From NCBI GenBank assembly GCA_963727485.1, contig CAVSGM010000011.1, positions 640,001 through 704,000 on the forward strand: a DNA stretch of 64,000 nucleotides, read 5' to 3'. The first letter of the stretch is position 1. Each line of letters begins with the position of its first letter. The position numbers and the translations under genes are program-made. The notes under the pieces are model-generated. The model had not been told where the DNA came from. It saw only the letters and a list, made by a program, of their open reading frames with translations, and made no database searches. Below, piece by piece: positions 1 to 16,585 of the stretch. Source of the stretch: an uncultured delta proteobacterium (lineage in GTDB: Bacteria > Myxococcota > Myxococcia > SLRQ01).

Positions 1-3000
1 CGCTGACGCGTCGAAGTCGAGGGGTGGGATCACCGCGAGGTGCCCGCCGGGGAAGGGACGGAGGACGACCCCGAGCTCGGCGAGGTCGTCGAAGAGCTCC
101 TCGCCCCGGGCGCCGGCGTGGATCACCCGGTAGAGCCCGAGGCCGTGGACCTCGAGGCCCGCGGCGACGGCGGGCTCGAGGGCCCGGTCGAGCTCGGCCA
201 CCGCCGCCTCGAGGTCGAGGCGCCGCGCCGCCCGGAGCTGGTGGTGCTCGCGGACCAGCGACAGCTCGTCGCCGTCCCAGGTCGACACCATCGTCAAGGG
301 CTTCTCCACGAAGAACCCGTCGGACACGTGGAGGTACCCGGTCTGGGCGCCGCCCCACCAGCCGACGATGTCCGGCGCGAAGCCCGCGCTCCCGGCGAAG
401 GGCCCCACTCCGTTGCGGTAGGCGGCCGTGGTGGTCTCCATGAGCACCACCGGGATCCCCAGCGCCTCGCGGAGCGCCGCCAGCGCCGGCCAGAACGCCT
501 CGGGCACCACCCGCCCGGTGCGCTCCTGCACCGCCTCCAGGTAGAGCCCCAGCACCTTGTCGGGCCCCCCGGCCGCCGTCACCGCCGCGCGGATGGCCGC
601 CACCGTGGCCTCGACCCCGGCGACCGCCGGGTGGGGCACCCGCGGCCAGTCGAACCAGGGCGCGCCCTGGACGTGCACCGCCGGATCCGAGAGCGAGCGC
701 GCCGCCGCCGTGGTGTGCCCGAAGTAGCCGCCCTCGAGGCCGAGGGCCACCTGCCCTGCGGGCCGGTGGTAGCGCAGGATGCGCAGGGACTTGTCCGTGG
801 CCTCGTCCCGGCTCGAGGTGAGGTAGAGGTGCGGGTGCGCCGGCACCAGGGCCTGCACCCACTCCACCGCCCGGACGATGGCGGGCGTCACGTAGTTGCA
901 CAGGGTGATCTTGTTCACCGTGGGCCCGAAGAGGCGCCCCTCGGCGGCGGCCTCGCGCAGGTCCACCGGCGGCGTGGCGAAGGGCCGCGAGAGCCCCGAG
1001 GCGAGATCGAGGGTGGGCAGGGCCTCGCCGCCCCGGGGCGTCGGTACCGGCGCCGCCTCCACCCCGGGCGCCGGGGGCCCCAGGGGATCCGGAAGTACAG
1101 CGCCACTCCGTCGGGGCGCCCGTACTGCCCGTGGAGCACCGTGACCAGGTGCGCCCCGTAGCGCCGGTTCAGCCGCCGCATCGCCGGGGTGTGGCCCACC
1201 CGGTTGCGCCCGCTGGAGAAGCGGTAGCGCGGCGTGCCGTCCGGGCGCGTCATGGCCCGGGCGGCCTCGAGCTGCGCCTGCTTGAGGGCGTGCCCGAGCC
1301 CCAGCCCGTGGTAGTCCGGGTCCAGGGTGACCGTGCGCGAGTAGAGGGTGTTCTCCCGGCCGAGCATGGGGTCGGCGTCGGGGCCGGGGACGTCGCCGGC
1401 GAGCTCCAGGGGGATGCCCACCGCGAAGCCCACCATCCGCCAGTCGCCGCCGTCGCGGACCTCGGCGACCACCGGCACCCCCTCGGGGTGCTCGATGGCC
1501 TCCTGGAGACGCGCGGGGGGATCCTGCCGCGCCGGTTCGAAGACCCGGGCCTCGAGGTCCACCAGGGCCTGGAACGCCGCGGACCGCTCGGCGGGATCGA
1601 GGACGCGCACCCGGGTCTCGGGGCCCGTGCGCATCCCGGCCCGGGGCGGCGGATCCTCCCAGGCCGGCGGCGTCTCGCCGGGGTGGGCGTCGAGCCAGGT
1701 CAGCGACGCGTGGATCGCCACGAAGAGGGCGTCGACGTCGGCCTCGGTCCAGGTGGCGTTGAGGCGGTAGCGGGCGGTGCGGTCCCCGGCGGCGAAGACG
1801 ATGGCCCCCCGGTAGAAGCGCTGGGCGATGTACGCGCCCAGGTGGGCCGGCGAGGGGAGGTCGAAGGCCATCGCGAACCCCCGGCACCGGGGGCGCGTGA
1901 CCAGCCCGGGCCACCGCTCGGCGAGGTGGTCGAGGCGGGGCCGGACCATGGCCTCGACGATCTCCGCGTTCTCCGGCGTCGACGCCAGCTCGGCGTGGAG
2001 GCGCCCGCGGATGAGGGACGCCGCCTGGGTGGGCGTCGGCTCCGGGTCCTCGAAGCGGCTGACCACCACCCCCACCTGTGCCCGCTTGGCGAAGACCACC
2101 GCGTCGGGGTGGTCGGGGTTCCCGTCCCGGTCGGCCAGCCCGAAGCGGCTGTGCCAGGCGAAGGGACCGCCGAGGCCGAAGCCCGTCTGCACCTCGTCGA
2201 AGATGAGCGCGACCCGGTGTCGCCGGGTCAGGAGCCGGAGCGCCCGGAAGAAGCGCCCGGAGGCGTAGCGGTCGCCCCCCTCGCTCTGCATCGGCTCGAT
2301 GATGCACGCCAGGTATTCGCCGGTGGCAAGCGCCCGGTCCACCGCCAGCAGGCTCTGGATCTCCGTGGCCAGGAGCGCCGGGTCGCCGTCGGCGCCGTCG
2401 GGGGACGCGGGCCCGTAGCGGTCCGCGAGCTCGGCGAGGCGGCCCTCGGCCACCGCGTCGAGGAAGCCGTCGGGCTCCGCCGGCTCCCGGTCCATGGGCC
2501 GGGTCCACAGGGGGAAGGGCGCAAACGTCGCCTCGTAGCCCTCGAGCTCATACGGGCCCCGCTTCGCCGGGTTCGCCGTGGCGTGGAGCGGCAGGAGGGT
2601 GCGCCCGTGGAAGGCGCCCTCGAAGGCCAGCACCCTCCGGGCCGCCGCCGGGGCCTCCTGGCGGCACAGGGCCAGGGCCTTCTCGTTGGCCTCGGATCCG
2701 CCGCTGGCGAAGGTGACCTCCGGGAGCCCGGGCACCAGCCGGCGCAGGGTCTCGGCGAAGGCCCGGGCCTCGGGGCTGTCGGGATCGGCGGTGTCCGGGT
2801 TTGCGAGCGGCGTCTCCCCGAAGGCCCCCTCGAAGAAGGCGGCGACCACCGCGTCGGCGCCGAAGCCCGCGGGGAGGGTCGCCGTCTGGCTCATCCCGTC
2901 GAGGACCGAGAGGGGCCTGCGGTCGATGGACACGTACCAGGGCCCGTAGGACCGGAGGTGATCGAAGACCGCCGGCTTCTTCTCCCGGACGATCCCCGCG

Positions 3001-3185
3001 GCGTAGAGCCGCTCGAGCCAGGCCTCGCTCTCGGGGAGCCGGCCGCCCTCGGGGAGCCGCAGCCCCAGCGGCCGCGGGCGGTTCACCAGGTCGCGGCCGG
3101 CGTCGCGGCGCTCCTCGTCCCGGTGGCGGGCTTCGAGACGATCCAGGTCGGATCCGGGGAGGGGAGAAGGGGTGCTCTGCGCCAT
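1..3185 (-). CDS. Class-III PLP aminotransferase (L-lysine 6-transaminase-like) fused to a GNAT acetyltransferase and a second, degenerate aminotransferase domain; runs off the window start; one frameshift near 1080
   Basis: ATG at 3185 (MAQSTPSP) with GAGG upstream. Motifs [47 protein letters not shown] motif [10 protein letters not shown]. After a one-base slip in a homopolymer at ~1080, an open frame continues to position 1 ([28 protein letters not shown]). Confidence 0.8.
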
Positions 3186-3306: not shown

Positions 3307-4116
3307 ATGACGGAGCATGGGGAAAGAGACGTAAAGATCTGTCTCACCATCGCCGGCACCGACTCCGGGGGCGGCGCGGGGATCGCCGCCGACCTCGCGA
3401 CCTTCGCCGCCCACGGCTGCCATGGCACCCTGGCGGTCACCTGCGTCACCGCCCAGAGCACCCTCCGGGTCGCCGCCGTCCACCCCGTGCCCCCCGGGAT
3501 CGTCGCCGCCCAGATCGACGCGGTCCTCGAGGACCTCCCCGCCGACGCCGTCAAGACCGGGATGCTCTTCGACGCCGGGATCATCGAGGCGGTCGCCGAT
3601 CGCCTGGCGGCCCACGGCGCGGCGCACCTGGTGGTGGACCCGGTCATGGTCGCCTCCACCGGGGCCCGGCTCCTGGAGGCCTCGGCCGTGGCCCTCCTCC
3701 GAGATCGCCTCCTGCCCCTGGCGGAGGTGGTCACCCCGAACCTCCCGGAGACCGAGGCCCTCGCCGGGGGCCCGGTCGCCACCGAGGCCGATCGCCTCGA
3801 GGCGGCGAGGCGGATCCTGGAGCTGGGGCCCCGGTTCGTGGTGGTCAAGGGCGGCCACGGCGAGGGCCCGGCGGTGGACCTGGTGGTGGGCCGGGACGGC
3901 ACCACCGAGCGCCTCGAGGCCCCGCGCCTCGAGACCCGGGCCACCCACGGCACCGGGTGCACCTTCTCGGCGGCCCTCGCCGCCGGGCTCGCCCGGGGAC
4001 GCCCGGTGGCCGAGGCGGCGGCGGAGGCCAAGGCCTACGTCCACCGGGCCATGGAGACCGCCTTCCCCCTCGGCGGCGGCCCCGGGCCCCTGAACCACTT
4101 CCACCGGTGGGGGTGA
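3307..4116 (+). CDS. thiD: Hydroxymethylpyrimidine/phosphomethylpyrimidine kinase
   Basis: LTIAGTDSGGGAGIAADL, VKTGML, VVDPVMV, TPNLPE, VKGGH and THGTGCTFSAA motifs. Confidence 0.95.
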   Translation: MTEHGERDVKICLTIAGTDSGGGAGIAADLATFAAHGCHGTLAVTCVTAQSTLRVAAVHPVPPGIVAAQIDAVLEDLPADAVKTGMLFDAGIIEAVADRLAAHGAAHLVVDPVMVASTGARLLEASAVALLRDRLLPLAEVVTPNLPETEALAGGPVATEADRLEAARRILELGPRFVVVKGGHGEGPAVDLVVGRDGTTERLEAPRLETRATHGTGCTFSAALAAGLARGRPVAEAAAEAKAYVHRAMETAFPLGGGPGPLNHFHRWG

Positions 4117-9740: not shown

Positions 9741-10874
9741 GCGACGACCGCCCGGTGGTGCAGGTCGAGACCGCCCGGGCCCTGGAGGATCTGCTCGAGG
9801 TCCTCGCGCGGTCGCCCCGGGTGGGCGTGGACACCGAGGCCAACGCCTTCCACGCCTACCGGGAGCGGGTCTGCCTCATCCAGAATCTCCACCGAGGCCA
9901 CCGACTACGTGGTCGATCCCCTGGCGGTGGACGTGGCGCCGCTCGGCGACCTCTTCGCCGACCCCAATCGGGAGACCATCTTCCACGCCGCCGAGTACGA
10001 CGTGAGCTCGATGAAGCGGGACTTCGGCTTCCACTTCGAGGCCATCTTCGACACCCAGGCGGCGGCGATGGTCCTCGGCTCGGGGCAGGTGGGCCTCGCC
10101 GGGCTGGTGGAGCAGTACTTCGGCATCCGGCTCCCCAAGGGCGAGACCCGCTCCAACTGGGCGCAGCGGCCCCTGACCCCGGCCCAGCTCGACTACGCCG
10201 CCACCGACACCCGCTTCCTCCTCCAGCTCCGGGCGCACCTCGCCGCCGAGCTCGAGGCCGCCGGCCGGGTCGACGAGGCGAGGGCCCAGTTCGCCCGGGT
10301 CGCGGCCACCAATCCCCACACCCGGCCCTTCGACCCCGAGGGGTTCTTCAAGATCAAGGGCTTCCGGGACCTCGACGCCACCGGCCGGGCCACCCTCCGG
10401 GCCCTCTACCTCGCCCGGGAGGCCCGGGCGGCGGAGATCGACCGGCCCCCGTTCAAGGTCATGGGCAACGACGTCCTGGTGCGCCTCGCCGACCTCCGGC
10501 CCGCGGCCCCGAAGGATCTCGACCAGGTCCGCGGGGTCCCGGCGCCGGTGAAGGCCCGGTGGTCCGGGCCCCTCCTCGAGGCCATCCGCGCCGGGGCCGC
10601 CGACCCCGAGCCGCCCCCGAAGCGCCGGCCGAGGCGCCCGGAGGACGCCCCCGACCCGGAGGCCCTCGCCCGGTTCGAGCAGCTGCGGACCTGGCGCAAG
10701 GAGAAGGCCGCGGCCCGGGGGGTAGAGGCCCAGATCATCGTCACCAGCGGGGTCCTCCGGGCCATCGCCGACGCCCGGCCCCGGACCCTCGAGGCCCTCC
10801 GGGCGGTCCCCGGGGTCGACGACTGGGCCGCGGACGTCTACGGCGCCGAGATTCTCCAGGCCCTCGAGGGGTAG
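9737..10874 (+). CDS. rnd: Ribonuclease D (3'-5' exonuclease + two HRDC domains); frameshift at ~9885
   Basis: TTG start overlapping the psuG stop; VGVDTE, CLIQ, FHAAEYD, FDTQ, SNWAQRPLTPAQLDYAATD. Removing one A at GAATC 9883-9887 joins the two frames. Confidence 0.9.
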
Positions 10875-11080
10875 GGGCGCGCCCGGCCTCGGTGAGGCAA
10901 CGCGCCCCATGAACGGGGGGGCCCTTCCGACCGGTCGTGGCGCCGGGGGTCCGGCGGACCTGGCGGCGCTCGTGATCCCAAGCGCCTGAAACCTGTTGGG
11001 TTTCTGGCGCACCCCCCGGGCGACATCCCCAGATCGGCGCCGGCGTTGACTGCCGAATCGTAACGCGACGTGTCATCGAC

Positions 11081-11109
11081 TTGACACGCACATGCCCGGT
11101 CCCTAGACT
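11081..11109 (+). promoter_or_regulatory. Sigma-70-type promoter
   Basis: TTGACA (11081-11086), 17-bp spacer, TAGACT (11104-11109), upstream of an AGGAGG RBS (11167-11172) and ATG 11184. Confidence 0.75.
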
Positions 11110-11183
11110 CCGCGCGCCACTGGGGGCCCGTTCCTTGGGCCGCGGATTCCGATCGGCGGCGACAGCAGGAGGAGTGCAGGACG

Positions 11184-11420
11184 ATGAATCAGCCCAAGCC
11201 CAACCCGACGCCACTTCCCAACGTCATCAACGCGGAGTCGCGGACCGGTTCGGAAGCCATCCGCAACCTCTTCTGCCCCGACTACGAGAACTGCCTGAAC
11301 ATGGCGGTGAAGCGGGGCTGGCCGTCCTTCTCCTGCCAGGAGTGCGCCCTCTTCGCCGGCGGCGCCGACACCTGGGACCAGCAGATGGAAGGCTACGCCA
11401 CCCAGCGCCGCTTCGCCTGA
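11184..11420 (+). CDS. Small four-cysteine protein (RNLFC-x5-C...W.SFSC-x2-C), possibly metal-binding
   Basis: 78-aa ORF with strong promoter and RBS, host-like codon usage and four clustered Cys. Confidence 0.8.
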   Translation: MNQPKPNPTPLPNVINAESRTGSEAIRNLFCPDYENCLNMAVKRGWPSFSCQECALFAGGADTWDQQMEGYATQRRFA

Positions 11421-11433
11421 GGCGGCGTGCGCC

Positions 11434-11467
11434 GCGGCGCCGTGGCCCCCCGGGCCGACGGCGCCGC
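11434..11467. terminator. GC-rich hairpin between convergent genes
   Basis: GCGGCGCCGT-GGCCC-ccc-GGGCC-g-ACGGCGCCGC inverted repeat; no U-tract. Confidence 0.4.
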
Positions 11468-11480
11468 CCCGGGCCCCCGG

Positions 11481-12317
11481 TCAGCCGTCGCTGTCGGGGG
11501 CTTCGTCGTCCTCGTCCTCGAGGATCCCCGGGTCCTTCATGGGCCGGGCCCGGTCGTCGATCCCCTCGTCCTCGTCGTCCTCGCCCTCGGGCCGCGGCCC
11601 GGCGAAGCCGACCACGCAGGTGACGTTGTCGAGGCCCCCGGCCATGTTGGCGAGCTGCACCAGGGCCTCCCCGGCCTCGGTGGGATCCGAGGCCTGGTGG
11701 AGGACCACGCCGAAGGCCTCCGGGGGCACCATGTCGGTGAGCCCGTCGGAGCACAGGAGGAGCCGGTCCCCGGTCTTCACGTCCTCCCGCTGCTGCTCCA
11801 GGTAGAGGCCCTCGGGCATCCCCAGATGGGCGGCGAGGTAGCGGATGCCCCCCTCGACCACCACGTGGTCCCCGGTGAGCTGCTCCAGCATCCGGCCCCG
11901 GAGGCGGTAGGCCCGCGAGTCGCCGGTGTGGGCCACGAAGAGCCCGTCGGTGTGGACCAGCACCGCCACCAGGGTGCACCCCAGGCCGAACTTCTCGGGG
12001 TCCTCCTCGCCCACGGCGGCGATGGCCTCGTGGGCCTCGGTGGCCAGGCGGACCACCAGCTCGCAGAGGGCGCCAAAGGGCGCGTCCCCGGCGGCGTCGA
12101 GGACCTCGGCGGCGGCCCCGGCGTAGCCGCCCAGGTGGTCGACCGCGATCTGCGAGGCCTCCTCGCCGGCGGGGTGGCCGCCCATGCCGTCGGCGACGAC
12201 CAGGAGGACCCCGGCCTCGGGACGGGCGGGGCGGGCGATGACCATCCGGTCCTCGTTTCCGGGCCGGACCTGGCCCACGTCGCTCTTGCCGGCGGCGACG
12301 ATATCTTCCGGGTTCAC
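11481..12317 (-). CDS. PP2C/PPM family Ser/Thr protein phosphatase
   Basis: SDVGQVRPGNED, VADGMGG, GCTL, HTGDSRAY, LLCSDGL, GGLDNVT; GTG start overlaps the upstream stop. Confidence 0.92.
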   Translation of the reverse strand: MNPEDIVAAGKSDVGQVRPGNEDRMVIARPARPEAGVLLVVADGMGGHPAGEEASQIAVDHLGGYAGAAAEVLDAAGDAPFGALCELVVRLATEAHEAIAAVGEEDPEKFGLGCTLVAVLVHTDGLFVAHTGDSRAYRLRGRMLEQLTGDHVVVEGGIRYLAAHLGMPEGLYLEQQREDVKTGDRLLLCSDGLTDMVPPEAFGVVLHQASDPTEAGEALVQLANMAGGLDNVTCVVGFAGPRPEGEDDEDEGIDDRARPMKDPGILEDEDDEAPDSDG

Positions 12318-13163
12318 GCGTAGGCTCCAAGCACCCCCCGGACCGACGCCCCGTAGGCGCCGCCGAAGAGGTTCAGGTGGTTGAGGAGGTGGTAGAGGTT
12401 GAAGAGGTCGACCCGCGACCCGGCGCCCTCGGGGAGGGGCCAGGCGGCCTCGTAGGCGTCGTAGAAGGCGGGGGGGAGGCTGCCGAAGAGGCGGGTCATG
12501 GCCAGGTCCGCCTCCCGGAAGCCGTAGTGCGCCGCCGGGTCGACCAGGCAGCCGGTGCCGTCGGCCCGGGCGAAGACGTTGCCCACCCACAGGTCGCCGT
12601 GGAGGAGCGACGCCGGCTCGCCCTCGGGGAGGAGCCCCGGGAGCCGGTCCATCAGCGCCTCCACCTGCCCCAGGGTGCCCCGGTCGAGGCGCCCCCGGTC
12701 GAAGGCGAGGCGGGCCTGGAAGCCCAGGCGGTGCTCGGCGAAGAAGACCACGCCGTCGTCGGTCCAGGGGTTCGGCTGGGGAGTGGCGCCGAGGTAGTTG
12801 TCGGCGTCGAAGCCGTGGCGGTCCGAGGTGCGCCGGTGGAGGGCGGCGAGGTCGGTCCCCAGGCGGGCGGCGCCGGCGTCGTCGAGGCGCCCGGGCTCGA
12901 ATCCACGCCAGCACCAGGACCTCGGCGCCCACGTGGAGGACCTCGGGGACCGGGGGGCCGCCCCCGGCGAGGGCGGTGAGGCCCCGGGCCTCCTCGGGGA
13001 ACATGTCCGGCGGGGCGCCCCGGGCGGTCTTGGCGAAGACGGTCCGGCCGTCCTCGAGCTCCACCCGGAAGGCCTCGGCGATGGAGCCGCCGGCGAGGCG
13101 CCGGGTGCCCCGGACCCGGGCGCCGAGACCCGCCTCAACGGCGCTTCGTGGCGTTCGGTCCAC
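12314..13163 (-). CDS. Fructosamine/ketosamine-3-kinase family protein; frameshift at ~12901
   Basis: GGSI, FAK, EARGL, FDADNYLGATPQPN, LLHGDLWVGN, DPA...READLAMTRLFG, LYHLLNHLNLFG. Confidence 0.9.
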
Positions 13164-13717: not shown

Positions 13718-14588
13718 CTACGCGGCCCGGAGGCCGAGGATCCGCCGGGTCTCCTCGGGGCTGGCGATCTCTCGCCCGGCGTCCCGGGCCACCTGCGCCA
13801 GCGCCGCCACCAGCGCGCCGTTGGACGACGCCTTCTCCCCGTCCGGGAGGTAGAAGGTGTCCTCGAGGCCGGTGCGCAGAATCGCCCCCGAGCTCGGCGG
13901 TCTTGCGGTGGAGGTCCCAGACCTCCTGGCGGCCGATGCCGATGACCTGCCAGTGGGTCCCCGGGACCATCTCGGCGATGAGCAGGGGCAGCCACTTCGC
14001 CTTGGCGGGCATCCCGCTGGCGACGCCCATGACCAGGGAGACGTGGGGCGGGCTCGGGACCAGGCCCCGGCGGACGTAGAGGCCCACGCTGCGGAGGATG
14101 CCGGTGTCGAAGCACTCGCACTCGGGGACCACGCCGTGCTCCTTCATGGCGGTGGCGAACTGCTCCACCTTGTCCACCGGGTTGTCGAAGAGCATCGGGG
14201 GCCAGGCCCACGCGTCGTTCGCACGGAGCTTGAGGTAGTTGAGCGACCCGGCGTTGAGCGCCGCCATCTCCGGGTGGACCCGCTCGAGGCAGGCCAGGGG
14301 ACCGGAGATGTCCGGGCCCACGACGCCGGTGCTCATGTTGATCACCAGGTCGGGGCACTCGGCGCGGATGGCGTCGATCACGGCCCCGGCGACGTCCGGA
14401 TCCCAGGAGGGCAGGCGGCCCAGGCCCGGCGCCTGGCTGCGGAAGTGGCAGTGGACGATGGACGCCCCGGCGTCCCGGGCGCGACGGGCCTCGGCGGCCA
14501 TCTCCTCGGGGGTCACGGGGACGTGGTGGCGCTCGGGGTCGGTGAGGACACCGGTGAGGGCGCAGGTGAGGATCGCCTTGTCGGACAT
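13718..14588 (-). CDS. Beta-keto acid cleavage enzyme (3-keto-5-aminohexanoate cleavage / DUF849 family); frameshift at ~13881
   Basis: ILTCALTG, VPVTPEE, AGASIVHCHFR, PEMAALNAGS, PECECFD; after the frameshift, RTGLEDTFYLP...SNGALV...stop at 13718. Confidence 0.9.
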
Positions 14589-14723: not shown

Positions 14724-15707
14724 TCAGGTCAGCGAGAGGACCCGGCGCTCGAGGCCGTGGCCCCGGTGGACGCCGGCGACGTGGGCCCCGGCGTCGATGA
14801 GCACCTTGAGCACCGCGGTGATGACGTCGGGGGCCCGCCCCTCGGCGCCCTTGAACCGGACGACCATCTCCCGGCGCCCGGGGTCCACCGAGGCGGCGGT
14901 CACCGCCTCGAGGCCCGAGACCGCCCGGCTGAAGGCCTCGTAGCGCTCGGGGGGATCGGCGAGCTCCACCACGAACTCGGTGTCGGCGGCGGTGAGCTCG
15001 TCCATGGGCCCGGCGGCGATGACCCGGCCCCGGTCGAGGATCGCCGCGTGGTCGCAGACCGCCTCGAGCTCGTAGAGGTTGTGGGAGCTGACGACGACCG
15101 TGGTGCGGTCCTCCTTCATCTCCAGGATGAGCTCGCGGACGCTGTGGGCGCTCTTGGGGTCGAGGCCGGCGGTGGGCTCGTCGAGGAGGACCACCTCCGG
15201 GTGGCCGATGAAGGCCTGGGCGAGGCCGACGCGCTTGGCCATCCCGTGGGAGAGGCCCTGGGCCCGGACCTTGCCCCACTTGGAGAGGCCCACCAGGGCC
15301 AGGACCCGGGCCGCCTCGTCCTTGGCCGCCTTGCCGCTGAAGCCCTGGAGGCGGGCGAGGTAGGCGAGGCTGGAGAGGACCGGCGTCGTCGGGGGCAGCG
15401 TGGCGTCCTGGGGGAGGGCGGCGAGGCGCCCCTTGAGGACCGAGACCCGCCGGGGGGAGGTCCCGAGGACCTCGACCACCCCGGCGCTCGGGCGGACCCA
15501 GCCGCAGACGAGGCCGAAGGTGGTGGTCTTCCCGGCGCCGTTGGGGCCGATGAGGCCGAAGACGGCGCCCCGGGGGACGGTGAGGTCGACGCCGTCGACG
15601 GCGTGGACCGATCCGAAGTGCTTCACCAGGCCCACGGTGCGGATGGCCGGGGCGCCTTCGGGGGTCTCGCCCGGGGGCGGCGGGGCGGTGGTCTCGGCCT
15701 CGCTCAC
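14724..15707 (-). CDS. ABC transporter ATP-binding protein (ABC-2 exporter type)
   Basis: GPNGAGKTT, LSHGM, VLLDEPT, SSH. Confidence 0.93.
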   Translation of the reverse strand: MSEAETTAPPPPGETPEGAPAIRTVGLVKHFGSVHAVDGVDLTVPRGAVFGLIGPNGAGKTTTFGLVCGWVRPSAGVVEVLGTSPRRVSVLKGRLAALPQDATLPPTTPVLSSLAYLARLQGFSGKAAKDEAARVLALVGLSKWGKVRAQGLSHGMAKRVGLAQAFIGHPEVVLLDEPTAGLDPKSAHSVRELILEMKEDRTTVVVSSHNLYELEAVCDHAAILDRGRVIAAGPMDELTAADTEFVVELADPPERYEAFSRAVSGLEAVTAASVDPGRREMVVRFKGAEGRAPDVITAVLKVLIDAGAHVAGVHRGHGLERRVLSLT

Positions 15708-16585
15708 AGGTCCTTCCTCCGGAGGGTCACGTACGACAGGAGCGTGAACAGCACCGCGAAGCCCAGGTAGGCCCCGGCGCCGATGAGCTGCCGCCCCAAC
15801 GTGTGGCTGGTGAGGAACTCGTTGTAGGTGAAGGGGATGGCCCAGCGGACCCAGTGGATGGCGTCGACGTGGCCAGCGACCCAGCCGAGGATCCACGCCA
15901 CGAACATCGCCAGCAGCCCGATGATCAGCGCCAGGTAGGGCGAGCGGAAAATCGACGAGAACCAGCTCATCAGGGCCACGAAGCACAGGCCGAGCGGCAG
16001 GGTCAGAAGCCAGAAACGCAGGAGCGGGGGGAACGACTCGGCGAGGCTGAAGTCCGGGACCCGCAAGGTGGCGAAGATCAGGAGCGCCACGTTGGTGAGC
16101 ACCGTGATCCCCAGGAAGAGGGCCATGTTGCTCATCAGCTTGCCGGCGACCACCGAGCCCCGGCGCGACCGGAGGAGCACGAAGCGCAGGCCCCGGCTCT
16201 GGATCTCGCCGTCGATCTGGTCGTAGCTCATCAGGGCGATGAGCAGGGGCAGGAAGGTCCGGCTCACCCAGAAGAAGAAGAAGACGATGACCGGGATGGA
16301 GATGAGGTAGGCCGCCTGCTTCTCGTCGCCGACGAAGCGGGTGACCAGGTCGAGGTAGGCCTTGTGCTTGGCCTGGGCGATCTGGTCGGCGCTCAGCTGG
16401 CTGGCCATCTGCCCCATCTGGCTCTCGACCATCTTGGCGATCTTGGCCTGGACGGTGACCACCACCGCGCCGCTGGCAAGCGACGCCAGGGCGTAGAGCG
16501 CCAGGAGCACGATCCCCTTCACCGAGCGCAGGGCGCCCTTGAGGTCCTGTCCGGCGATGACGAAGGTCTCACGCAGTGCTTCCAC
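15704..16585 (-). CDS. ABC-2 type permease
   Basis: About six hydrophobic segments; GEIQSRGLRFVLLRS..RGSVVAGK motif; GTGA overlap with the ATPase gene. Confidence 0.88.
   Translation of the reverse strand: MEALRETFVIAGQDLKGALRSVKGIVLLALYALASLASGAVVVTVQAKIAKMVESQMGQMASQLSADQIAQAKHKAYLDLVTRFVGDEKQAAYLISIPVIVFFFFWVSRTFLPLLIALMSYDQIDGEIQSRGLRFVLLRSRRGSVVAGKLMSNMALFLGITVLTNVALLIFATLRVPDFSLAESFPPLLRFWLLTLPLGLCFVALMSWFSSIFRSPYLALIIGLLAMFVAWILGWVAGHVDAIHWVRWAIPFTYNEFLTSHTLGRQLIGAGAYLGFAVLFTLLSYVTLRRKDL

Follow-up and report, generated by a model that had tools for sequence, protein, structure and literature searches.

A predicted single-chain pseudo-dimeric omega-transaminase with an internal GNAT domain from uncultured myxobacteria-like microbes

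Class-III (omega) transaminases, which are used industrially, form obligate homodimers in which the subunits share the active sites. Elsewhere among PLP enzymes, one half of serine palmitoyltransferase (SPT) and of the glycine decarboxylase P-protein (GcvP) lacks the PLP lysine. Residue roles for the lysine 6-transaminase (LAT) of M. tuberculosis are given in the available text of PMC9780415: R170, for example, binds the substrate carboxylate, and Thr330 and Ser329 are supplied by the other subunit. The SPT of a coccolithovirus is described as a single-chain fusion (PMC5371807, in the part available). Whether different aminotransferase monomers make heteromultimers is little known, according to the available portion of a 2022 review (PMC9309667).

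The gene described here lies at the edge of the window, by which we mean the whole 64,000-nucleotide stretch of contig CAVSGM010000011.1 that was analysed. It is read from the minus strand, with an ATG at position 3185 and a second frame whose stop lies outside the window, 38 bases before position 1. Once both frames are joined the chain has about 1073 residues and consists of an aminotransferase domain (domain 1), a GNAT domain and a second aminotransferase copy without the catalytic lysine (domain 2), in that order. Its stop codon overlaps the start codon (ATG) of a gene for a C45 hydrolase, which is followed by a second class-III aminotransferase (AT2), scoA and scoB, all outside the window; the operon order is fusion-C45-AT2-scoAB. 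The features are listed below with conservation counts among related proteins; YHGLGLG, LMETTTA and the 10-residue segment of domain 2 are placed from sequence. Every motif position given by an earlier, sequence-only reading was borne out on the minus strand. No plasmid record matched, the RNA search listed none, and a promoter scan gave nothing above shuffles.

1677..3185, minus strand: domain 1 (residues 1-503), class-III (fold type I) aminotransferase, PF00202
2598..2612, minus strand: FHGRT with Arg195 (LAT R170, substrate carboxylate binding); R in 148/162, with 13 gaps from truncated sequences
2271..2288, minus strand: QSEGGD with Glu302 (LAT E243 switch); E in 159/162
2181..2201, minus strand: FDEVQTG with Asp330 and Gln333 (LAT D271 and Q274); D in 162/162, Q in 161/162
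2076..2105, minus strand: 10-residue Schiff-base segment with Lys367 (LAT K300); K in 65/65 and 161/162
2025..2060, minus strand: 12-residue segment after the Schiff-base segment of domain 1, found where the earlier reading placed it
1761..1778, minus strand: Arg472 (LAT R422), partner of Glu302; R in 161/162
1086..1631, minus strand: GNAT domain with RimI/Naa10-like fold, PF00583, 21.7 bits
1293..1313, minus strand: YHGLGLG, intact CoA-binding loop of the GNAT domain
1083..1086, no strand: one-base slip in a G run; homologs in frame, contig with an extra G
1..1029 plus 38 bases past the window edge, minus strand: domain 2, a catalytically dead copy of the aminotransferase; Lys and DEVQ are missing and the phosphate turn reads SSRDE
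895..915, minus strand: NKITLCN, another loop conserved in domain 2 (LAT counterpart in the alignment NKPSN); K in 153/162, N in 155/162
424..444, minus strand: LMETTTA of domain 2
343..372, minus strand: 10-residue segment of domain 2
268..288, minus strand: VSTWDGD, Thr loop (LAT S329/T330); S in 159/162, T in 159/162 (plus 2 S), W in 159/162

The sequence-only reading had proposed a one-base slip, and we confirm a frame shift in the G run at 1083-1086 that is most likely an assembly error. Of the best 120 homologs, 102 are a single ORF across the junction, as is the gene in a genome of the same family (G283), whose protein has 1075 residues, and both scoB and a BKACE gene are also split by one-base slips in this assembly. 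A 597-nt short-read contig (run X1), covering 824-1419 and differing at one other letter, carries an extra G at the slip. In view of the intact homologs, it is most improbable that the junction is real and separates two genes, or that this strain carries a decaying pseudogene, although the slip is present in the assembly and the correction comes from one contig alone, of depth 3.6, which may belong to a sister strain. The junction at about position 1080, which as a true gene break would have spoken against the earlier reading, is most probably not one.

Domain 1 was scored against family models and solved structures. In the first frame PF00202 reached 111.4 bits (cut-off 30.5), and a Pfam scan of the protein at E<=0.1 returned PF00202 and PF00583 alone, with the GcvP and SPT families absent. 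The nearest solved structure by both sequence and fold is M. tuberculosis LAT (Z 32.8, rmsd 2.3, 403 aligned), and the scores were 177 bits against LAT, 162 against pig GABA-T and 127 against AstC, the last being lower than the other two, which counts against an AstC role. The L-lysine 6-transaminase model TIGR03251 gave 124.2 bits, below its cut-off of 520.8, and the AstC/ArgD models were not reached (TIGR03246, 56.5 bits, cut-off 610; TIGR00707, 74.4 bits, cut-off 410). Equivalents of LAT R170, E243, R422 and K300 are all present, and S-Q-I and P-R-S motifs are held in common with pig GABA-T. On sequence grounds, domain 1 belongs to the lysine 6-transaminase/eukaryotic GABA-transaminase branch with all cis catalytic residues kept. 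In place of a Thr loop of its own it has DPEPT, and S/N-T-W was absent within 90 residues after the domain 1 DEVQ in all 162 relatives, so the earlier observation that domain 1 keeps FDEVQTG and the Schiff-base lysine without an STW/TF loop holds across the family.

Domain 2 presents the reverse pattern. Alone it has no Pfam match at E<=0.1, and hhalign aligned it with a natural lysine 6-transaminase over 319 columns (probability 98.1, E 9e-14). The Schiff-base lysine occurs in 0/162 relatives, the DEVQ position reads E/D-T-A-S, and the phosphate-binding turn has changed from SGAEA to SSRDE. It had been claimed that domain 2 lost both catalytic motifs yet keeps VSTWDGD; both parts stand, with the refinement that the position of the PLP-N1 Asp stays acidic (E in 146/162, D in 16/162) and that what has gone after it is E-V-Q. 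The NKITLCN loop has no conservation in domain 1. A search for stand-alone domain 2 (150-606 aa) gave 120 matches, mostly fragments on short contigs and 62 of them with part of the GNAT domain; among matches bearing the loop motif, none of 118 had Lys at the tested position, one being unresolved; split forms may nevertheless exist. A quick-method tree of 37 rows did not settle the branching of domain 1, domain 2 and LAT and did not distinguish duplication from separate origin.

Across the 162 relatives, in which the pattern recurs, domain 1 keeps K in 161, D in 162, E in 159 and R in 161, and domain 2 keeps the Lys in 0 and the Thr in 159. By this sequence comparison, the complementary pattern is not a chance one. 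An AlphaFold single-chain model of an intact homolog (P0009) had a pLDDT of 94.7 and a pTM of 0.94. A two-chain prediction of domain 1 and domain 2 with PLP gave an ipSAE of 0.95, the best of 3 controls scoring 0.00; the mark was reached by 116/157 solved pairs and 2/215 mismatched pairs. Runs shared at least 86% of contacts, with partner pLDDT of at least 91. The predicted interface comprises domain 2 residues 30-53 (the NKITLCN region) and 244-251 (the STW loop) and domain 1 residues 160-165, 194-198 and 366-367, so that the STW loop and Lys367 are both part of it. The ipSAE pass may stem from likeness to solved homodimers. A wide fold search with the whole model, weak above 400 residues, listed no chain covering both aminotransferase domains; one row, GenB3, extends to residue 829 with 371 aligned. 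Taking residue complementarity and the two kinds of model together, the two aminotransferase domains very probably adopt the classic dimer arrangement, with one functional PLP site, which supports the proposal of a single-chain pseudo-dimer.

The GNAT domain that the sequence-only reading recognized between them (YHGLGLG) matches PF00583 at 21.7 bits against a cut-off of 20.7 and was found in 25/25 fusion proteins tested; the CoA-loop glycines are conserved at G620 (61/65) and G622 (65/65). Its model (pLDDT 94.6) is closest to E. coli RimI (Z 18.6, rmsd 1.9, 142 aligned), and many GNATs fall within 3 Z units of the RimI/Naa10 matches (Z 18.6-18.4, rmsd 1.9-2.5, identity 12-16%). The fold resembles alpha-amine acetyltransferases such as RimI and Naa10 more than it does the polyamine acetyltransferases. 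By sequence, the GNAT profile met nothing in the PDB below E 0.17, and the ESM Atlas returned generic GNAT clusters and nothing more specific. Stand-alone relatives in one marine clade lie downstream of a PotABCD-type transporter and a putrescine-transaminase-like gene, with labels read from the sequences; 15 of these 17 loci are near-identical, making them effectively one observation. In an AST-type route the GNAT domain would duplicate AstA, which counts against such a route.

The gene is a member of a conserved family in uncultured myxobacteria-like microbes, kept even in genomes of 1-2.5 Mb; a scan of genome contigs gave 78 loci, only 8 of which are family members. In 20/29 genomes an AstD-like aldehyde dehydrogenase is fused at the N terminus, and these four-domain relatives (AstD-like dehydrogenase, transaminase, N-acyltransferase, dead transaminase) have 1,430-1,780 residues. 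AstD was the top NCBIfam match of the fused domain in 6/6 tested, all below cut-off. When the astD of the present genome was used as query, the fused domain was the best match in 20/20 long-form genomes, and the sole match in 17, and a stand-alone gene was the best match in the other 9/29. That astD adjoins astA on contig C3 at 225139-227672; the latter is above the PF04958 cut-off, and the former has AstD as its top NCBIfam match, below cut-off. The two genes are neighbours in 5/6 three-domain genomes viewed, one of them Bacteriovoracaceae, and in 0/10 four-domain genomes, two of these being cut by contig ends. AstA is present in 38/39 fusion genomes and 4/5 further ones, and inside the fusion locus in 0/29; its co-occurrence is weak evidence, since AstA is common in the phylum (315/401) and kin are not independent. 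A close C45 subfamily (E<=1e-57) occurs in 38/39 fusion genomes and 0/362 others. The closeness of C45 and argD in family f14 turned out to reflect a block of housekeeping genes. AT2, nearest to taurine:2-oxoglutarate aminotransferase, was found in 35/39 genomes and is adjacent in 14/29 loci.

These partners, an aldehyde dehydrogenase, an amidohydrolase, a second omega-transaminase and a CoA-transferase, point to a degradative, acylate-first route, and an acyl-protected catabolic logic is probable. We give about an even chance to the fuller reading that domain 1, within the pseudo-dimer chain, is the omega-transaminase of an acylate-transaminate-oxidise-deacylate route and acts on N2-succinylornithine in place of AstC; for succinylornithine as the main substrate, the chances are slightly short of even. 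The AstA-like enzyme and/or the internal RimI-like GNAT would N-acylate the alpha-amine of the substrate. With Thr250 of domain 2 completing its site, domain 1 would then transfer the omega-amine to 2-oxoglutarate using a LAT-type Glu/Arg switch, and the aldehyde would be oxidised by the AstD-like dehydrogenase, which is fused in most relatives and lies beside astA here. C45, replacing AstE, would take off the acyl group, and ScoAB may recycle the acyl-CoA. The fused AstD-like dehydrogenase, the co-occurrence of C45 and AstA, and the missing ArgD/AstC make domain 1 a likely AstC stand-in: among fusion genomes with AstA and AstB an ArgD/AstC match was absent in 10/12, as against its presence in 10/10 non-fusion genomes tested, and in 4 small genomes the class-III set had no ArgD/AstC/OAT-type gene. 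The AST route has no step for AT2, which might itself replace AstC. The AstE family had no match in 5/5 genomes, nor was AstE found in the present genome (93% complete). AstB was not found in 27/39 fusion genomes, including this one, nor in 5/5 others. The arginase family had no match in this genome, and its matches elsewhere look like agmatinases; in most carriers, then, no known series of steps leads from arginine to succinylornithine. Homologs of AstA are able to succinylate ornithine, and ornithine entry by AstO of Acinetobacter may be compared (PMC12375414, in the part available).

The same pseudo-dimer might instead serve a Puu-like breakdown of a diamine (putrescine or cadaverine) with an acyl rather than a glutamyl protecting group, a possible but unlikely reading. 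GNAT would acylate one amine, one aminotransferase and the dehydrogenase would yield N-acyl-GABA, C45 would free GABA, and the GABA-T-like domain 1 would finish. The gene order suits a substrate with two amino groups, the S-Q-I and P-R-S motifs and the taurine-type affinity of AT2 fit, SpeA, AguA and AguB (putrescine-making) are present in this genome, and the marine GNAT clade points the same way. It leaves unexplained, however, that the dehydrogenase is an astA-linked AstD orthologue; the GNAT fold leans to the alpha-amine rather than the polyamine type, and AT2 was not found in 4/39 genomes. Lysine is a distinctly less probable substrate. GNAT would make N2-acyl-lysine, domain 1 would take the epsilon-amine in the manner of LAT, the dehydrogenase would give N-acyl-aminoadipate, and after deacylation by C45, AT2 would form 2-oxoadipate. 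The closeness of LAT with every cis residue kept, the lack of any other LAT-like gene in this genome and the alpha-amine type of GNAT fold favour it, but the TIGR03251 score is far below cut-off, a true LAT seen in the phylum adjoins a different dehydrogenase, and the 2-aminoadipate transaminase model is not among the best matches of AT2.

The sequence-only reading suggested biosynthesis of an amine metabolite by EctB+EctA logic, transamination followed by acylation. An aminotransferase and a GNAT do share one chain, and EctA is among the GNAT fold matches, but only 39th (Z 15.0 versus 18.6 for RimI); EctB (TIGR02407) gave 54.4 bits against a cut-off of 552, the fused dehydrogenase would use up the aldehyde substrate, and the co-inherited amidohydrolase would reverse the product. 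With such degradative partners we regard this proposal as very unlikely. Still harder to credit is aerobic lysine breakdown of the Barker type, which passes through N6-acetyl-beta-lysine. The window holds a BKACE gene at ~13.7-14.6 kb, KamA-family genes occur in 37/39 genomes, and a CoA-transferase and a deacylase suit the route. Against this, BKACE is in only 18/39 fusion genomes and in 0/15 of one family (f18), KamA passes its cut-off in 6/39, and neither was identified in the fusion loci.

In literature searches that left most subscription journals outside, we found no description of this architecture and, among the papers listed, nothing on arginine catabolism in Myxococcota. Tentatively, and with the odds against all parts holding jointly, this would be the first single-chain pseudo-dimeric omega-transaminase, and, for the majority of relatives, the core of a four-domain enzyme that acylates, transaminates and oxidises on one polypeptide in an AstB-independent N-acyl route for degrading ornithine, lysine or putrescine; C45 would be a new deacylase, and the conserved dead site of domain 2, in which Trp and Arg residues are invariant, would serve as a regulatory pocket. 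The division of cis and trans halves between fused, diverged copies across several bacterial lineages offers a clean case of evolution from homodimer to pseudo-heterodimer, a direct test of what a second subunit contributes, and a monomeric scaffold for omega-transaminases. The gene context suggests replacements for AstC and AstE and a testable function for a bacterial C45 subfamily; it also points towards an amine-degrading route among uncultured bacteria of the predatory type. Other PLP families provide precedents for pairing a working half with a dead one, and this limits the surprise.

Among those precedents, the glycine decarboxylase P-protein and LCB1/LCB2 SPT are PLP enzymes of fold type I too, in which one half is active and the other dead, the two being fused in some cases. 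Their plan recurs here as two fold-type-I domains, one without Lys by its motifs, with dimer-like packing in the models; they differ in family, in reaction (decarboxylation, condensation) and in having no GNAT or aldehyde dehydrogenase fusion. EctB and EctA likewise pair a class-III aminotransferase with a GNAT, but as separate biosynthetic genes with low scores here, and the RimI/Naa10 N-alpha-acetyltransferases are the top fold matches of the GNAT domain, yet at low identity. With the AST pathway the family shares linked AstA-like and AstD-like genes and an omega-transaminase fused to an AstD orthologue; it departs from it in a domain 1 outside the AstC/ArgD branch, in having AstB in 12/39 carriers and in C45 as candidate substitute for an unmatched AstE, and the GNAT domain, AT2 and ScoAB have no AST counterpart. 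Closest are LAT (Rv3290c, TIGR03251) and eukaryotic GABA-transaminase, which have the same fold (Z 32.8 and 30.9), the LAT cis residues F167, R170, E243, D271, Q274, K300 and R422 being matched in domain 1 even though its score is far under the LAT family cut-off. LAT and GABA-T are homodimers with two sites (PMC9780415, available text), whereas in the present protein one domain carries the cis half and another the trans half, both in a single chain and separated by a GNAT.

The fusion, which joins an aminotransferase (domain 1), a GNAT domain and a Lys-less aminotransferase copy (domain 2), is read in two frames in the assembly (window G000:C11:640001-704000):

3185 (start) to ~1086, minus strand: first frame, 700 codons
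~1086 to a stop codon lying 38 bases beyond the window edge, minus strand: second frame, giving a whole chain of ~1073 aa

Each motif named in the sequence-only reading was found at its position. Pfam matched PF00202 and PF00583 in the first frame and no family at E≤0.1 in the second; domain 2 nonetheless aligned with a natural lysine 6-transaminase over 319 columns (probability 98.1) and with domain 1 (probability 99.3). Other sequences cross the frameshift, for which repair from reads had been proposed. A 597-nt contig from run X1 (a salt marsh metagenome according to its record) spans 824-1419, differs at one other letter, and supplies the missing base as one extra G in the run at 1083-1086, as a single contig at depth 3.6. 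G283, from the same family, carries an intact 1075-aa fusion gene, and the junction is crossed within single proteins in 102 of the 120 best homologs, with 67 covering near-full length; among the remaining 18 are the protein of this window, records cut short and records with frameshifts. The fusion and scoB are frame-split in the window's assembly, making 2 of 14 G283 proteins with matches there. The slip at 1083-1086 is most likely an assembly error. Elsewhere in the window (~9909-13163 and 14724-15986), genes labeled from the ORF list as RNase D-like, fructosamine-kinase-like and ABC permease are apparently frame-shifted, consistent with residual indel errors, and a BKACE-family (3-keto-5-aminohexanoate cleavage-like) gene at 13730-14579, minus strand, is split over two frames and is not co-inherited with the fusion.

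In M. tuberculosis L-lysine 6-transaminase (LAT), as described in PMC9780415, one subunit contributes F167, R170, E243, D271, Q274, K300 and R422 to the active site and the other N328, S329 and T330. All 65 full-length homologs examined keep the corresponding R, E, D, Q, K and R in domain 1, and among 162 three-domain proteins we found K in 161, D in 162, Q in 161, E in 159, R472 in 161 and R195 in 148, plus 13 gaps. S/N-T-W occurred within 90 residues past the domain 1 DEVQ in none of the 162. In domain 2, Lys is absent from its column in 162/162, E/D-T-A-S replaces DEVQ, S-S/G-R-D-E stands at the phosphate turn, and the loop S, T and W are each retained in 159. The complementary motifs noted from the window alone recur across the family. 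Conservation is about equal in domain 2 and domain 1 (mean majority 0.61 vs 0.65), so domain 2 is under selection. P0179, a partial protein of 964 aa, retains DETVTAFG in domain 2 without the Lys and perhaps represents, judging by its motifs, an intermediate stage of decay.

AlphaFold2 modeled an intact homolog (P0009, 58% identical; 65-row alignment) with pLDDT 94.7 and pTM 0.94. A two-chain prediction of the window's domains 1 and 2 together with PLP gave an ipSAE of 0.95, the best of three controls scoring 0.00; the ipSAE mark is attained by 116/157 solved and 2/215 mismatched pairs. Contact agreement between two-chain runs was at least 86% and partner pLDDT at least 91. From domain 2, the STW loop (residues 244-251) lies in the predicted interface; from domain 1, residues 160-165, 194-198 and 366-367 do. 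Likeness to solved homodimers can itself yield a pass, so the two-chain score supports dimer-like packing of the domains, short of proof. The prediction, whose output covers contacts between the chains, places the STW loop at the interface together with 366-367, in line with the expectation that the loop would complete the domain 1 site.

GNAT was found in 25/25 fusion proteins tested, and its predicted structure is confident. Its best fold matches are RimI and Naa10 (Z 18.6-18.4), with EctA at 15.0; this predicted fold leaves the choice of acyl acceptor unfixed for a putative acyltransferase. Four proteins (P0227, P0244, P0251 and P0253; 477-525 aa) carry the same GNAT after an apparent collapsed domain 1 remnant with no class-III Pfam match, and from sequence the transaminase appears to have been lost in them while the GNAT persisted. 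P0243 (3319 aa) has two GNAT domains of the fusion's subfamily and otherwise no Pfam match.

A search for the same architecture, as had been suggested, returned the 162 proteins with all three domains. Of 401 genomes sampled across the window's phylum, 39 yielded domain 2: one of four others in the window's own family, 15/21 in f18, 6/6 in f19 and 11/11 in f25, and 0/172 and 0/67 in the two largest families. Named carrier records, from which the phylum of the window was deduced, fall in Myxococcota, Kofleriaceae, Nannocystaceae, Sandaracinaceae, Bradymonadia and one Bacteriovoracaceae. Family f18 genomes of 1.1-3.4 Mb (G008, G018, G042 and others) retain a 1,430-1,640-aa fusion, and 11/15 in f18 have a second KamA-family gene whose score approaches or exceeds the lysine 2,3-aminomutase cut-off. 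Two genomes are unpublished: G401, containing locus L002, contributes a single row to alignments A2-A4, one of six dehydrogenases profiled, one search query and one of five further carriers, and G196 is counted only in the 401-genome tallies; no conclusion depends solely on either.

The fusion is followed, in order, by:

C45 amidohydrolase, its start overlapping the fusion stop codon
AT2, a second class-III aminotransferase, nearest among solved structures to taurine:2-oxoglutarate aminotransferase
scoA, CoA-transferase gene
scoB, CoA-transferase gene

Of 29 fusion loci, 19 hold C45, 14 AT2, 10 ScoA and 7 ScoB; an AstD-like domain is found at 18 and AstA at none. Over whole genomes, C45 genes of the close subfamily (E≤1e-57, set at a gap in scores) occur in 38/39 fusion genomes and 0/362 others, and 18 f14 genomes hold weaker relatives; AT2-like genes occur in 35/39 fusion genomes and 3 of 16 others. 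Four small genomes have as class-III genes the fusion, AT2, and BioA and/or HemL, with one further unclassified gene in G089. A divergent thiD/pdxK-family kinase (3307-4116, plus strand) adjoins the fusion here and in G283 (2/29 loci) and could be related to PLP supply.

Most fusion relatives carry an N-terminal aldehyde dehydrogenase, in chains of 1,427-1,784 aa, for which AstD was the top NCBIfam match, below cut-off, in 6/6 tested. In the window's genome (G000) its orthologue is a separate gene directly after astA on another contig:

G000:C3:225139-227672 (L130:9140-11673): astA and astD as a pair; none of astB, astC and astE lies next to them

When this astD was queried in 29 of the 39 fusion genomes, 20 gave the fused domain as best match (17 of them as the sole match) and the other 9 a stand-alone gene. 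The two genes adjoin in 5/6 three-domain genomes viewed (in the exception, G403, the contig ends upstream) and in 0/10 four-domain genomes, G120 and G401 being cut by contig ends. Three long forms (L111:8185-13476, L113 and L120) have an extra ~110-135 aa between domain 1 and GNAT and ~100 aa between dehydrogenase and domain 1, neither with a Pfam match. AstA is encoded in 38/39 fusion genomes, 315/401 overall and 4/5 further carriers from named records, and AstB in 12/39. An ArgD/AstC match is missing in 10/12 AstB-bearing fusion genomes (seven at least 90% complete, all from two families) and present in 10/10 non-fusion genomes tested. AstA homologs often occur across the phylum without an AstB or AstD match, as in family f3, which suggests another, unassigned role for them. 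Directly upstream of astA in three non-fusion genomes (L145:5020-6396, L151:7812-9338, L160:5048-6415) lies an ArgE-like M20 peptidase, possibly their desuccinylase; tblastn found no match to it in G000.

Support is strong for the architecture and moderate for the pathway reading overall. The dehydrogenase would consume an aldehyde and the amidohydrolase strip an acyl group, implying that acylation comes first and flux is degradative; the biosynthetic order of the sequence-only reading, transamination then acylation, accordingly looks very improbable. We favor, at about even confidence, a route like the AST (AstA-AstE arginine succinyltransferase) pathway, in which domain 1 would act as an omega-transaminase fused to its downstream dehydrogenase, although the AstC stand-in could be AT2 rather than domain 1. 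Against it count the failure to find AstB in 27/39 carriers (G000 included) and 5/5 others, the lack of an arginase or ADI match in G000, and the five ureohydrolases checked in other genomes, all best-scoring as agmatinases. AstA homologs can use ornithine, according to PMC12375414, so the substrate may enter as ornithine.

G000 also encodes the putrescine makers SpeA, AguA and AguB, and stand-alone relatives of the GNAT exist; the loci viewed, nearly all from one clade, place them after genes for a polyamine-type ABC transporter and for a putrescine-transaminase-like protein. Both favor a diamine route, which we regard as a tentative second candidate. Domain 1 is nearest to LAT among solved structures, by fold and by sequence (177 bits; pig GABA-T 162, ArgD 136, AstC 127); we consider a lysine route improbable. 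An acetyl-beta-lysine route was unsupported, with BKACE in 18/39 fusion genomes and KamA over cut-off in 6/39.

The fusion is real and conserved, and is an apparently undescribed form of a known principle, the pairing of live and dead halves; our literature search returned no report of such fused halves for an omega-transaminase. Glycine decarboxylase has live and dead fold-type-I halves, sometimes fused, and so, like the fusion here, does serine palmitoyltransferase. Split and fused forms of the former appear in PMC3596361 and PMC4767401, and a viral single-chain fusion of the latter in PMC5371807.
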